A stretch of DNA of 26,528 nt from a virus (lineage: Duplodnaviria; Heunggongvirae; Uroviricota; Caudoviricetes), in IMG/VR virus record IMGVR_UViG_2563366972_000005, positions 1 to 26,528 of that record. One strand, written 5' to 3'. Positions within the stretch are counted from its first letter, which is position 1, and each line of letters starts with the position of its first letter. The notes under the pieces are model-generated. The model saw only the letters and a list, made by a program, of their open reading frames with translations, was not told the DNA's origin and did not search any database. Made by a program: the position numbers and the translations under genes. Below are positions 5,660 through 15,595 of the stretch, piece by piece.

Positions 5660-6298
5660 TTAAATATCTTGTTGAATTTTAAAGCATACGCCCAATATGC
5701 AAGATAGATCATCCAGCATAATTGAAGGGTAGCGAGGATTCGTGGGGACTAAAAGAATATCCGGCCCTTCTATCTCCAGTTTACGAATGACAGGTGTTGT
5801 GGTCCCTTTGGGTAAGGCAAGGACAATATTTCCTGGTTGTACGGTTCGATCGGGATCAACAAAAACTGTTGAACCATTTGGGATGGAAACTCCCCCACCA
5901 GATGTTGACATACTGTCACTCTCTAGAACAACTGCAAAGGTATTGGCCGGGATTTCTCCGACAAGCTGCACACAAGAGGTTATTGAGGAATTTTTCATAT
6001 AATCACTCCAGCTTGCTGCCTGCTGAAGTGATAGTAGCGGAACCGTTTTTATCGGCGGTAAAGATAGATCAAGCGAATCACCTGTATTTAACTCTCCTCC
6101 ATTAAGAAGCCAATTTTCGTTTACTTTCAATATCTTTGCCAGTGAACTTATGTAACGCGAGGACGGCGCTCCTCCACCGTTCATCCATTGACTTACGGAG
6201 CCTTTTGATGCGCCAGTGGCATTGACAAGGTCTTTGCCTTTCAGGTTTAGCGCATGCATACGTTGGGTTATGCGTTCAGATATTGTTTGCTTGCTCAT
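5660..6298 (-). CDS. CI-like repressor (N-terminal HTH plus C-terminal S24/LexA-like autopeptidase domain)
   Basis: 212 aa; N-terminal HTH-like segment (RMHALNLKGKDLVNATGASKGSVSQW) and C-terminal S24-like segment; divergently oriented from the cro-like gene. Confidence 0.88.
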   Translation of the reverse strand: MSKQTISERITQRMHALNLKGKDLVNATGASKGSVSQWMNGGGAPSSRYISSLAKILKVNENWLLNGGELNTGDSLDLSLPPIKTVPLLSLQQAASWSDYMKNSSITSCVQLVGEIPANTFAVVLESDSMSTSGGGVSIPNGSTVFVDPDRTVQPGNIVLALPKGTTTPVIRKLEIEGPDILLVPTNPRYPSIMLDDLSCILGVCFKIQQDI

Positions 6299-9389: not shown

Positions 9390-9518
9390 GCGGATGGTGC
9401 AGGCCTGAAATCATGATACTAACAATGAAGGTAAAATGCATCGGCTGTCTGATTGGTCGTAGTGAGGCGGCGGTCAGGATGAAAGCCCGGGTTAAGGGAA
9501 TAAGCCTGATTCTGCGGG

Positions 9519-9830
9519 GTGATTTTCACCAGTCAACAAAATATCCGTAGCGCGATAACGGTCAAAAATCATGGCGCTGACACTTTTGTGCCGCTGGAGA
9601 TGACTGTACCTAAGTTCAGGGGAGAAGAACACGTCCGGTGGGATGGTCGGGCCAGATTTAAAGGGCAGGTCATGGCTCCAGCCTGTACGCTGGCAATGGA
9701 GGCTGCCTGGCGGGAAATTGATATGGGAACCACGCCACTCAGGGATTTACTGCCGGTCCAGAGAATAAATCCCTGTTACGGTTACACCACTGTGATCTTG
9801 CAAGTGCAGGAAAGTAGGTCTACACGGTAA
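9519..9830 (+). CDS. Hypothetical ORF, possibly a fragment of a decayed gene
   Basis: 103 aa ORF with no convincing RBS; protein-like sequence continues in other frames on both sides (9386-9550 and 9818-9996). Confidence 0.25.
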   Translation: MIFTSQQNIRSAITVKNHGADTFVPLEMTVPKFRGEEHVRWDGRARFKGQVMAPACTLAMEAAWREIDMGTTPLRDLLPVQRINPCYGYTTVILQVQESRSTR

Positions 9831-10056
9831 CGCGAGTGCGTGTAACTTTTGATGTCATTCCCGTAGAAACACCGGACAAATTTTCGCTGACAGGTCATGC
9901 TGAAGGTATAAATCTGCAGATTATGGACAATTACGGATATCCGGCAAGAGCCGGAAAAAGCATGCCGCCTTTAATTCTCAGTGGAAGATGGACTTGATTA
10001 TACTCATTGCATTGTCAGAAATAGTTATCCATTAAAGGCTGGCTATTCCAAACAGG

Positions 10057-10084
10057 ATGTTGATTACAAAAATGTAATCAACAT
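10057..10084. promoter_or_regulatory. Perfect 12-bp inverted repeat ATGTTGATTACA-N4-TGTAATCAACAT upstream of the ModA-like gene; candidate operator
   Basis: Read directly from sequence; lies ~25 bp upstream of a TATAAT hexamer (10111-10116) in a 420 bp AT-rich intergenic region. Confidence 0.4.
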
Positions 10085-10248
10085 GTAAGGTTTATACTCT
10101 TCAACATGCGTATAATTTTCCTTATTTTGTTAACTTTAAATAACAAGCTATGCACGAGGTAAAGTCGGATAAGTCTATCTGGATATAATATATATTATTT
10201 GTAGTGTTTATAACTTTATTTCATGATAACCAATAAAAGGAGTTTTTT

Positions 10249-11007
10249 ATGAGGAACATAATGGCTGGTTTTTTAATATTCCTGTCTTCTGCTGCTTATG
10301 CTGATATCAATCTGTATGGTCCTGGTGGCCCGCATACAGCCTTGCTTGATGCAGCCAAACTTTACACCAAAAAAACAGGTATTATAGTGAACGTTCATTA
10401 CGGCCCACAGAACAAATGGAATGAAGATGCAAAAAAAAATGCAGATATCTTGTTTGGCGCATCAGAACAATCTGCTCTGGCTATCATTCGGGACCATAAA
10501 GACAGCTTCAGTGAAAAAGATATTCAGCCTCTTTATCTGCGAAAAAGTATTTTACTGGTAAAGAAAGGTAATCCTAAAAATATCCGGAGTATTGACGACC
10601 TGACCAGACCCGGGATTGGCATAATTGTTAATGATGGTGGTGGTACCAGTAATACATCAGGCACTGGCGTCTGGGAAGATATTGCCGGACGTAAAGGGAA
10701 TATAGAAACTGTCGCCGCAATCCGAAAAAATATTATTTTATATGCGCCCAATAGCGGAACTGCACGTAAGGCTCTTGAGAATCAGCCTGAAGCAGATGTC
10801 TGGATAACCTGGGCTGACTGGGCAGCCAGTAATCCAGGAATTGGTGATGTCGTGGAAATAGCGCCAGACTACGTGATATGGCGTGATATGAACATTACAG
10901 TACGTCAGGATGCAAATGATGAAACCCGTCGATTTGCAGAATGGCTACAAACCGATGAAGCGGCGCCTGCATTCAAAAAATATGGCTGGACCAGGAAAGG
11001 CACTTGA
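10249..11007 (+). CDS. Solitary periplasmic substrate-binding protein, ModA/WtpA-like (type 2 PBP fold), with signal peptide
   Basis: 252 aa; N-terminal signal peptide (MAGFLIFLSSAAYA); ModA-like landmarks (INLYGPGG...ALLDAAKLYTKKTGIIVNVHYG, ADILFGASEQ, C-terminal FKKYGWTRKG versus ModA FKRYGFT); AAAGGAG Shine-Dalgarno; AT-rich; no permease or ATPase partner nearby. Confidence 0.7.
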   Translation: MRNIMAGFLIFLSSAAYADINLYGPGGPHTALLDAAKLYTKKTGIIVNVHYGPQNKWNEDAKKNADILFGASEQSALAIIRDHKDSFSEKDIQPLYLRKSILLVKKGNPKNIRSIDDLTRPGIGIIVNDGGGTSNTSGTGVWEDIAGRKGNIETVAAIRKNIILYAPNSGTARKALENQPEADVWITWADWAASNPGIGDVVEIAPDYVIWRDMNITVRQDANDETRRFAEWLQTDEAAPAFKKYGWTRKGT

Positions 11008-11012
11008 CATCC

Positions 11013-11045
11013 ATCCACGTCCTTCAGGACGTGGATTCTTTTTCC
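11013..11045 (+). terminator. Rho-independent terminator after the ModA-like gene
   Basis: Perfect 10-bp stem ATCCACGTCC/GGACGTGGAT with TTCA loop followed by TCTTTTTCC. Confidence 0.7.
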
Positions 11046-11130
11046 GGATGCCGCGCCAGCGGCATGTAGGGGCAGCTCACAAAACGGAAAAAATTGTACG
11101 CTAAGCCTCGCCAGGTGAACTGAATTCATT

Positions 11131-11154
11131 CCGATATGGGAATTCCCATATCGG
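11131..11154. repeat. Perfect 24-bp palindrome CCGATATGGGAATTCCCATATCGG
   Basis: Read directly; centred on GAATTC; lies in the structured leader region upstream of hok. Confidence 0.5.
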
Positions 11155-11346
11155 GCGAAAACGGTTTGCTGTAACGGCAGAGTTAAGTAGAATTGCTGCG
11201 GGTGCTTGAGGCTATCTGCCTCGGGCATGAACACCAACGGCAGATAGATAAAAGCCCCACCCGACTATAAATCGAAGTGAGGCCCCTATATGCTCGTCAC
11301 ATATAGATTGCCTCTTACGGACCGAAAGGTCAAGGAGAAGCAGGCT

Positions 11347-11502
11347 ATGAAGCAGCAAAAGGCGATGTTAATCGCCCTGATCGTCATCTGTTTAACCGTC
11401 ATAGTGACGGCACTGGTAACGAGGAAAGACCTCTGCGAGGTACGAATCCGAACCGGCCAGACGGAGGTCGCTGTCTTCACAGCTTACGAACCTGAGGAGT
11501 AA
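11347..11502 (+). CDS. hok: Hok/Gef-family type I toxin (small membrane-depolarising peptide)
   Basis: 51 aa MKQQKAMLIALIVICLTVIVTALVTRKDLCEVRIRTGQTEVAVFTAYEPEE; close match to the Hok signature (...LTRKSLCEIR...REVAAFMAYE...); single TM helix; highly structured upstream leader. Confidence 0.85.
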   Translation: MKQQKAMLIALIVICLTVIVTALVTRKDLCEVRIRTGQTEVAVFTAYEPEE

Positions 11503-11572
11503 GAGACCTGGCGGGGGAGAAATCCCTCGCCACCTCTGATGTGTCAGGCATCCTCAACGCACCCGCACTTAA

Positions 11573-11599
11573 CCCGCTTCGGCGGGTTTTGTTTTTTCC
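11573..11599 (+). terminator. Rho-independent terminator downstream of hok
   Basis: CCCGC-TTCG-GCGGG hairpin followed by TTTTGTTTTTT. Confidence 0.6.
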
Positions 11600-11669
11600 T
11601 GGCATTCTGGTTTACAATTCGCACGCCAGCCTGAACAACTGGCACCTGCTGCGCCAGCAGAGACAACCG

Positions 11670-14443: not shown

Positions 14444-15163
14444 ATGGGTATGGATGACAGCACTCTGCTGAGGAACTCTTCACTTTTTATTGCTTATATG
14501 GGCTGTCTTGGATGGGGAAGCGCTTATTTCTATGGATGGGGGACTTCCTTTTACTATGGCTTTCCATGGTGGATCGTCGGGGCTGGCGTTGATGATGTGG
14601 CTCGAAGTTTGTTTTATGCTGTGAGCGTTATCGTTATATTCCTTACTGGATGGGGAGTAGGTATTGTTTTCTTTTTAGGCATAAAACAAAAAAACAATAT
14701 ACAGAATTTGAGTTTTATCAGACTTTTTCTGGCAATATTGCTGCTTTTTATTCCGCCTGTTCTGGAGTTTTCGGTAATTCATCAGCACGTTGAGCCAGAT
14801 GTGCTGTTTTTTTGTGTTATTGCTGCCTTTACAATTACGCTTTTTGTCAGGTCAGGAAGAAGACTTATTTCAGTCAAATGTTTTTCGGAAGTGTCTTTTA
14901 TTCGCCATCACCGAATTGAGTTTATTATGGCTGGATTCATGATTTATTTCTGGACATTCTCTCTTATTGCCGGTTGGTATAAACCCCAGTTTAAGAGGGA
15001 ATATCAGACGATCCACTATGAGAATACCTGGTATTACGTTCTTGCACGCTATGATGATCGTCTGGTTTTATCGAAATCGTACAGTAATGGGAGTTCTGCA
15101 TTCGTTATACTTAATAGCGGGCAGATTGATGACTTTGAAATTAATGTAGTCAGAGTTCGTTAA
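14444..15163 (+). CDS. AT-rich integral membrane protein (about 5 predicted TM helices plus ~60 aa soluble C-terminal domain), function unknown; first gene of the late operon
   Basis: 239 aa; hydrophobic segments SLFIAYMGCLGWGSAYFYGW, LFYAVSVIVIFLTGWGVGIVFFLGI, FIRLFLAILLLFIPPVLEFSVI, VLFFCVIAAFTITLFV, FIMAGFMIYFWTFSLIAGWY; markedly lower GC than flanking phage genes. Confidence 0.65.
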   Translation: MGMDDSTLLRNSSLFIAYMGCLGWGSAYFYGWGTSFYYGFPWWIVGAGVDDVARSLFYAVSVIVIFLTGWGVGIVFFLGIKQKNNIQNLSFIRLFLAILLLFIPPVLEFSVIHQHVEPDVLFFCVIAAFTITLFVRSGRRLISVKCFSEVSFIRHHRIEFIMAGFMIYFWTFSLIAGWYKPQFKREYQTIHYENTWYYVLARYDDRLVLSKSYSNGSSAFVILNSGQIDDFEINVVRVR

Positions 15164-15285: not shown

Positions 15286-15361
15286 GGCCCTTTAGCTCAG
15301 TGGTGAGAGCGAGCGACTCATAATCGCCAGGTCGCTGGTTCAAATCCAGCAAGGGCCACCA
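15286..15361 (+). tRNA. tRNA-Ile2 (anticodon CAU, lysidine-type, reads AUA), ileX-like
   Basis: Cloverleaf folded by hand: acceptor GGCCCTT/AAGGGCC, anticodon loop CTCATAA, T-loop TTCAAAT, encoded CCA; near-identical to E. coli tRNA-Ile2. Confidence 0.88.
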
Positions 15362-15362
15362 A

Positions 15363-15439
15363 CCGCCACTAGCTCATCAGGAAAGAGCGTCAACCCTTTA
15401 AGTTGAGAGTGCGAGGTTCGAGTCCCCGGTGGCGGTCCA
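15363..15439 (+). tRNA. Noncanonical tRNA-like gene (anticodon loop CCTTTAA: UUU at 34-36 but C at position 33; A.C mismatch in T-stem)
   Basis: Acceptor CCGCCAC/GTGGCGG, U8, D-arm GCTC/GAGC, T-loop TTCGAGT, encoded CCA; anticodon stem TCAAC/GTTGA. Confidence 0.55.
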
Positions 15440-15441
15440 GT

Positions 15442-15517
<76 letters not shown>

Positions 15518-15520
15518 TAT

Positions 15521-15595
<75 letters not shown>

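Follow-up and report, generated by a model that had tools for sequence, protein, structure and literature searches.

The prophage cargo gene paa/adfO and its probable CusR/HprR-type copper-box promoter

Copper-box promoters and the Paa family

The 26,528-nucleotide (nt) stretch of Caudoviricetes DNA analysed here (IMG/VR record IMGVR_UViG_2563366972_000005, positions 1 to 26,528; the whole stretch is called the window below) represents a prophage of lambdoid type, as judged by its Pfam families, and carries the gene paa, also named adfO, with a palindrome a short distance upstream. An earlier note on this DNA had described the gene as ModA-like cargo; it is an already known gene of the AcfC/PEB3/Paa family, reportedly first described in 2003 in porcine Escherichia coli. 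Our analysis suggests that paa/adfO is a self-contained prophage cargo gene with a CusR/HprR-type promoter that would be inducible by copper or oxidants, a reading to which we assign a probability of roughly 0.7 on the basis of sequence comparison. Copper or host oxidants would probably be the switch for paa.

The closest described promoters are those of the copper-box systems. CusR and HprR of E. coli K-12 are regarded as near single-target regulators, acting only on cusRS/cusCFBA and hprRS/hiuH, and have one common recognition sequence (PMC8249747), the box CATTACAAAATTGTAATG (PMC9302797). Copper induction in Legionella needs ATTACAAnnTTGTAAT together with two short elements situated between this sequence and the -10 hexamer; the short elements fix the direction of activation, and E. 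coli CusRS is able to drive the promoter (PMC6989116). The region upstream of paa shares with cusC and hiuH, and with the LciR-dependent Legionella gene lciE, an inverted-repeat box, a proximal element, a fixed distance to the -10 and the lack of a -35 (PMC9302797, PMC6989116). Like lciE, paa would be a horizontally acquired, virulence-related gene placed behind a copper-sensing system, which for paa we infer from its sequence.

For the protein, the closest described relatives are associated with colonisation. The gene adfO is Z2053 of the enterohaemorrhagic E. coli (EHEC) strain O157:H7 EDL933, where it lies in O-island 57, is discussed as a virulence factor and always has 'ckf' alongside; the phenotypes of Paa and AdfO concern adherence and colonisation, as summarised in PMC8565820. 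AcfC proved periplasmic by fractionation, bound sulfated glycans and mucin in enzyme-linked immunosorbent assays, and affects mucin chemotaxis (PMC5976639). Relatives of Paa are binders of small anions or sulfated glycans. Paa is a full-length homologue of AcfC and PEB3, is predicted to be periplasmic as they are, and has in common with them the lack of a transporter partner and an association with colonisation (PMC5976639), and all three contain the loop SNTSGTGVWED. Their wiring differs, in that acfC stands in an operon after the chemoreceptor gene acfB under ToxR/ToxT control (PMC5976639) whereas paa is predicted to be monocistronic after a copper box. Comparison with the PEB3 structures (PDB 2hxw, 3fir, 3fj7, 3fjg and 3fjm) further showed that the PEB3 N-glycosylation sequon DFNVS is not kept in Paa, which has DSFSEK. 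The window and EHEC Z2053/adfO have the same gene in the same prophage position with the hok-type 'ckf' downstream, the DNA being 98-99% identical to the annotated paa loci of 577 complete genomes, and the window departs from known paa loci by one private base change and a few amino-acid differences, nothing of which is material.

The paa/adfO promoter

The palindrome (10057-10084), returned by a repeat search, is a perfect inverted repeat of 12 bp whose arms (10057-10068 and 10073-10084, ATGTTGATTACA/TGTAATCAACAT) are 100% complementary and stand 4 nt apart. Nested within it on the + strand is the putative CusR/HprR-type copper-box core ATTACAAAAATGTAAT (10063-10078), which has 15 of its 16 positions in common with the hiuH box of K-12, ATTACAAAATTGTAAT. 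A promoter-proximal half-site, TGTAAGG, follows 5 nt past the box (10084-10090, +), identical in hiuH and reading TGTCACC in cusC, and a -10 hexamer TATAAT, read from the sequence, lies 48 nt from the box start (10111-10116, +). We fetched the K-12 hiuH and cusC promoter sequences and aligned them with the paa promoter. In the order box, spacer, element, gap and -10, hiuH reads ATTACAAAATTGTAAT, gctgc, TGTAAGGTT, 19 nt and TATCCT; cusC reads ATGACAATTTTGTCAT, ttttc, TGTCACC, 21 nt and TAAAGT; and paa reads ATTACAAAAATGTAAT, caaca, TGTAAGGTT, 18 nt and TATAAT. The proximal element of paa thus agrees with that of hiuH at 9/9 positions, and the distance from box start to -10 is 48 nt in paa, 49 nt in both hiuH and cusC, with the plasmid modules described below at 48-49 nt. 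A pattern built from K-12 sequence only (the two CusR/HprR sites) found a single match in the window (10063-10090, 1 mismatch), while 100 shuffles yielded no match; the inverted repeat ATTACAAnnTTGTAAT / ATGACAAnnTTGTCAT of CopR-type boxes is also present at 10063-10078 with 1 mismatch.

A scan of the region upstream of paa called no sigma-70 -35/-10 pair, because the -35 is missing: the hexamer at 17-nt spacing 5' of the -10 is AGGTTT, a 1/6 match to the -35. A standard sigma-70 promoter was therefore rejected for paa, and the absence of a -35 is typical of an activator-dependent promoter. The TGTAAGG half-site orients the copper box towards paa, and transcription is predicted to start at about 10123, which would place the box centre about 52 nt upstream of the start. 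The core of the palindrome is most likely the activator site of a two-component response regulator, not a repressor operator, because its box, proximal element, -10 spacing and missing -35 match those of hiuH and cusC and because the motif lands on copper loci in the genome scan reported below. Sites for Fur, Zur, FNR, TyrR, CpxR, PhoP, ArcA, EvgA, OmpR and RstA were also considered, and none fits the palindrome in both sequence and spacing. Literal searches of papers for the paa version of the box gave no match, and no paper was found joining paa, acfC or adfO to copper, CusR or HprR; control of paa by CusR/HprR thus appears to be unreported.

The earlier note had proposed that a search for the palindrome elsewhere might name its regulator, and such a search proved informative. 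We scanned 185,579 genomes, one per species, with the pattern ATKRCAAAAATGYAATCNNNNNGYMAG, which was derived from paa-type plasmid and prophage copies only. The scan returned 73 loci, mainly in GC-rich Beta- and Gammaproteobacteria. A CusR/HprR homologue was present in 49 of the 73, mostly at 58-68% identity to E. coli CusR, and in 26 a CusR homologue started less than 400 nt from the motif, in the classical divergent arrangement. The 50 downstream genes scanned included DUF411 proteins (7), the outer-membrane efflux family (7), multicopper oxidases (5), CusF (3) and the HMA heavy-metal domain (2). That a motif taken from paa lands on copper-resistance loci with cusR-like genes identifies it as a CopR/CusR-type copper box. 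None of the 73 loci contained a Paa homologue.

Beyond the Proteobacteria, the exact 17-mer ATTACAAAAATGTAATC occurs in Clostridia (loci L042 and L078), Calothrix (L050 and L077), Pseudopedobacter (L071) and Omnitrophota (L029). Genes for ATPases of ATP-binding cassette (ABC) transporters lie downstream at both clostridial loci, and the CopR-type nature of these 17-mer sites is putative.

In several respects paa departs from the systems with which it was compared. The regulator genes are divergently adjacent in K-12, in Legionella and in 26 of the 73 scanned loci, whereas at paa they are not adjacent, and no response-regulator or kinase gene is present in the 26,528-nt window. The cusRS and hprRS genes are chromosomal in E. 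coli and would act in trans. Furthermore, the target is not a copper-handling protein, unlike those of the copper-box systems compared, and the box stands 1 mismatch off the consensus; Paa has no cysteines and no Met/His-rich motifs, and so does not resemble a copper chaperone.

Comparison among carriers indicates which part of the palindrome is conserved. Of 5426 complete E. coli genomes, 577 (~11%) have paa on lambdoid prophages, O157:H7, O121, O145 and O111 included, and the 91-nt promoter of the gene has 98.9% identity in all 577 carriers, the window being off by one base. This base, at position 10105 in the spacer between element and -10, is C here and apparently T in all 577 other promoter-bearing E. 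coli genomes. At the DNA level, the paa-like cassettes of plasmids share 87-89% identity with that of the prophage. Three of the four plasmid lineages differ in the outer left arm (6 bp) without compensating changes, whereas ATTACA-AAAA-TGTAATCA and the GTAAGG after it do not vary across lineages; in an upstream alignment of five paa lineages the box contains the longest invariant stretch (14 nt). Since the outer arms vary while the inner 6+6 bp are kept, the perfect 12-bp symmetry is incidental, and the conserved unit is the inner 16 bp with its downstream element, not the 28-bp hairpin. In one plasmid lineage, whose Paa is 87% identical, the upstream region has diverged past easy alignment, yet the box and its spacing to the -10 are kept.

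A block of about 33 bp recurs on plasmids before two other gene sets, an 81-amino-acid (aa) BhsA/ComC-like gene and a DUF305 + YncE-like pair, and the start of each such plasmid block is 48-49 nt away from a TATAAT-like hexamer. The plasmid genes with a box look like a small mobile set of genes that would be copper- or oxidant-responsive. The block positions on the IncF plasmids are 4260 and 5381 in L011, 3001 in each of L014 and L015, 2116 in L005 and 1131 in L016, and the BhsA/ComC-like and DUF305 + YncE-like genes often share plasmids with paa-like genes.

These comparisons bear on an alternative that we regard as unlikely, in which the palindrome would be a structural, RNA-stabilising or terminating hairpin dealing with read-through from phage or fimbrial genes 5' of it, or else an inert copper box left over from an earlier copper-resistance setting. 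Folded as RNA, the inverted repeat reaches -15 kcal/mol (z = -5.0), as a functional hairpin might, but a U-tract is missing after it on both strands, and the left-arm changes among lineages are uncompensated, which argues against selection for pairing. Its position, which is both the 3' end of an annotated fimbrial pseudogene and the left edge of the mobile cassette with paa, and the confinement of the copper box to the Escherichia paa lineage would suit a hairpin or a relic. However, box, TGTAAGG and -10 spacing have been kept jointly in diverged lineages and before three unrelated plasmid gene sets, the pattern expected from selection on promoter function, and the promoter is near-invariant in 577 genomes.

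The Paa protein and its prophage setting

The paa/adfO coding sequence (10249-11007, +; 252 aa), identified by its RefSeq name, Pfam and PDB matches and Paa cluster, is the sole substantial open reading frame (ORF) within 9831-11045. A Shine-Dalgarno sequence, AAGGAG (10237-10242, +), was read from the sequence 6 nt 5' of the ATG, and its AAAGG core is unchanged across five paa lineages. The first codons (10249-10302, +) encode a predicted Sec signal peptide, judged by eye only: the N-terminus MRNIMAGFLIFLSSAAYA, followed after the cleavage point by DINLYGPGG, has an n-h-c layout and an AYA/D cleavage motif, and the crystallised mature PEB3 chain 2hxw_A begins at the residue aligned to Paa D19. 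When 9400-11600 of the window was compared with complete E. coli genomes, 574 genomes covered at least 80% of the query and the best match to a paa locus had 99.2% identity; the annotations under these matches include 'paa: AcfC family adhesin Paa', 'fimbrial protein' (a pseudogene) and 'hokD'. PPompW prophage records, some of them adjoining Stx2a phages, name the gene 'porcine attaching-effacing associated protein Paa/adherence factor'. A cluster of 616 members (P0001) that bears the name 'AcfC family adhesin Paa' shares 98% identity with the protein. The profile search that the earlier note had called for placed Paa in Pfam SBP_bac_11 (E = 1e-34), and phmmer against the PDB gave full-length matches to the Vibrio cholerae AcfC structure 4jb7 (E = 4e-82, residues 16-248) and to Campylobacter jejuni PEB3 structures (E = 3e-81, residues 11-248).

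The earlier description of the protein as ModA-like stands at the superfamily level only. Paa and ModA belong to a common type-2 periplasmic binding-protein superfamily (Pfam SBP_bac_11), and Paa has no modBC partner; membership of ModA itself was rejected, with scores of 19.9 bits against a cut-off of 62.5 for TIGR01256, 12.3 against 253 for NF007958 and 14.8 against 288 for NF002918. Sulfate- and thiosulfate-binding identities were likewise rejected, their profile models being far under cut-offs. Paa is a periplasmic binding protein of the AcfC/PEB3 family without an ABC partner, and the earlier claim of a lone type-2 binding protein lacking a permease and ATPase is borne out, with a signal peptide as a prediction. 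No permease or ATPase gene adjoins paa in the prophage of the window or in 11 other genomic contexts, the prophage, plasmid and chromosomal settings covering seven genera. On IncF plasmids of E. coli and E. albertii neither stands beside the paa-like gene, whose neighbours are replication, toxin-antitoxin, autotransporter, insertion sequence and effector genes, and neither stands beside the Paa homologues of Edwardsiella, Raoultella, Salmonella, Yersinia and Citrobacter. In Enterobacter a homologue lies about 690 nt 3' of an ABC operon, one that already includes a binding protein. The possibility that paa is a fragment of a transporter operon, which the earlier note had raised, is ruled out, as the gene is solitary in all contexts examined and the Enterobacter ABC operon is self-sufficient in binding protein.

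Other regulatory genes adjoin some of these homologues, at loci L008/L009 (6421-10739), L097 (1-3046) and L095 (613-3455). Those of Enterobacter have a hybrid kinase resembling BvgS and a response regulator of GerE type beside them, and the Salmonella homologue adjoins GerE-type regulator genes only, which suggests a different regulatory wiring of the Paa family in other genera.

It nevertheless could be imagined that Paa is an orphan binding protein that docks on a chromosomal ABC importer for sulfate/thiosulfate or molybdate and serves oxyanion uptake. The Pfam SBP_bac_11 fold, the weak, local similarity to binding-protein models for sulfate, thiosulfate and molybdate and to solved sulfate-binding proteins, and the nearness of the Enterobacter homologue to an ABC operon would fit such a role. 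We consider it improbable, given that the transporter-specific models all fall far under their cut-offs, that the Enterobacter operon brings its own binding protein, and that permease and ATPase genes are missing beside the gene in the prophage, on the IncF plasmids and in five other genera; moreover, the phenotypes known for the family are adherence, mucin chemotaxis and sulfated-glycan binding (PMC5976639, PMC8565820).

The genes of the prophage run from integrase, exonuclease and a CI-like repressor (5660-6298) through DnaT-like and lambda-P-like replication genes to a DUF1627 gene, after which come the paa region, hokD/sok, DUF968, RusA and antiterminator Q. The location and composition reported in the earlier note, an AT-rich insertion between replication and nin genes, agree with what we find: GC is 0.33-0.38 across 9800-10600 against 0.5-0.57 in the flanks, and the region lies between DUF1627 and the hokD/Q region. 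The perfect 12-bp inverted repeat, TATAAT and strong terminator that it listed were also all recovered, the terminator as an intrinsic one called by a terminator scan and folding (11013-11045, +), with a 10-11-bp G+C-rich stem followed by TCTTTTT; the stem at 11013-11036 has 10 pairs, 6 of them G-C, and folds at -20.9 kcal/mol (z = -4.5).

In the interval 9831-11045 covered by that note, the left part, 9831-10042, represents the 3' end of a degraded fimbrial pseudogene and is separate from the paa module. The frameshifted remnant of the fimbrial-subunit gene (9555-10042, +) was recognised from RefSeq at the equivalent position of a relative, locus L001, where it is worded 'fimbrial protein, frameshifted; internal stop', and its broken ORFs lie at 9519-9830, 9836-9997 and 9981-10088. 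The RefSeq pseudogene reaches 10088, and its final ~45 nt also occur in plasmid paa cassettes without any fimbrial gene. Homology to the plasmid cassettes begins only at about 10043-10063, within the left palindrome arm, which places the fimbrial remnant outside the paa cassette. A query of concatenated flanks matched no record joining both flanks directly, so the borders of the insertion rest on the plasmid comparison. Occupancy is variable, another prophage having a DUF4752 gene between the DUF1627 gene and hokD. By its promoter, terminator, intermodule position, base composition and variable occupancy, paa is a phage moron, that is, an autonomous cargo gene. Because the RefSeq pseudogene runs through the copper box, the regulatory site lies under a pseudogene annotation in public records.

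Of the readings considered, the earlier note's operator, if taken to be bound by a dimeric phage or host repressor that silences the cargo in the lysogen, is very improbable: a perfect 12-bp repeat with a 4-nt spacer has the typical shape of a helix-turn-helix repressor site and the same prophage encodes a CI-like repressor, but the site lies about 27 nt 5' of the -10, centred near -52 with no overlap with the -10 or the predicted start, has no second copy in the 26.5-kb window, has outer arms that are unconserved in plasmid lineages themselves without a prophage, and has a conserved part that is exactly an activator site of known type, upstream of a promoter without a -35.

Several features lie downstream of paa. 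A Hok/Sok type I toxin-antitoxin locus occupies 11200-11502, in which Rfam places sok at 11200-11349 (103.9 bits) and a mok/hok ORF (Pfam HOK_GEF), called hokD in RefSeq relatives, spans 11290-11502; this hok-type gene is the 'ckf' that constantly accompanies adfO in O-island 57. A spacerless perfect 24-bp palindrome (CCGATATGGGAA/TTCCCATATCGG, 11131-11154) lies between the paa terminator and hok/sok and folds as RNA at -20 kcal/mol (z = -3.7). Downstream of Q, Rfam identifies 4 tRNA genes (15286-15592) against 3 in L001, the closest annotated relative, and between Q and these genes a 239-aa ORF (14444-15163) has no Pfam family and matches only PHROGs without an assigned function (phrog_1521, E = 1e-86).

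Expression, proposed mechanism and significance

When the O157:H7 strain EDL933 was kept in rumen content from cattle, log2 changes were +3.5 for cusC, +4.0 for cusF and +2.4 for acfC/Z2053 (PMC8524897 supplement). This co-induction of Z2053 with cusC and cusF is only a correlation. A 2026 study found HprR to be needed for EHEC adherence, an effect attributed there to ler and hiuH (PMC13064566).

Under the proposed CusR/HprR control, periplasmic Cu(I)/Ag(I) would act via CusS to phosphorylate CusR, and/or H2O2/HOCl via HprS to phosphorylate HprR, with PcoR or SilR as possible stand-ins in strains that have pco or sil clusters. The regulator would occupy 10063-10090, its box centred near -52, and recruit RNA polymerase. 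A monocistronic mRNA of about 920 nt, from about 10123 to 11045, would end at the intrinsic terminator, and mature Paa, after cleavage at the AYA/D motif, would act in the periplasm or at the cell surface. In this way the palindrome would couple a colonisation factor to a gut signal, either feed or host copper or the oxidants of epithelium and neutrophils, while the AT-rich cassette would otherwise probably be poorly expressed.

Several observations weigh against copper- or oxidant-inducible control of paa. Position 10072 is A where the published box consensus has T, so that the inverted repeat is 6 bp instead of 7. Another TATAAT, at 10184-10189, could serve as a promoter that does not depend on the box. 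No box was found 5' of the Paa homologues of Salmonella, Yersinia, Citrobacter, Enterobacter, Edwardsiella and Raoultella (7 non-Escherichia contexts), and the box could be a passenger in the paa lineage; its absence outside Escherichia and the lack of Paa in the 73 copper loci point to a lineage-specific rewiring, not an ancestral trait of the family. In rectum content, acfC/Z2053 rose by +3.2 log2 while cusC and cusF were not induced (PMC8524897 supplement); another input must therefore exist, which could be HprR or something unrelated. Finally, paa/adfO goes unmentioned in the main text of the O157:H7 HprR study (PMC13064566).

If the link to CusR/HprR is false, what remains is a gene already described whose promoter and terminator are ordinary. 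A broader proposal, which we advance tentatively and judge slightly less probable than even, is that paa/adfO belongs to a mobile 'accessory CusR/HprR regulon' together with the plasmid paa-like, bhsA/comC-like and DUF305 + YncE-like genes, and that copper or oxidants directly induce a colonisation factor. A bolder version is that Paa may primarily protect the envelope from copper or oxidant stress by binding small anions, with adhesion secondary.

Copper is a common feed additive. If the proposal is correct, the inducing copper would derive from the feed of pigs and cattle or from the nutritional immunity of the host, or oxidants made by the host would take its place, and the accessory regulon would explain part of HprR-dependent adherence, which would concern EHEC, enteropathogenic E. 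coli and porcine E. coli. Control of paa by CusR/HprR would in itself tie together feed copper and porcine paa, HprR-dependent adherence (PMC13064566) and the co-induction of Z2053 with cusCF in the rumen (PMC8524897). With such control, the CusR/HprR regulon would extend into the accessory genome, to a virulence-associated prophage gene.

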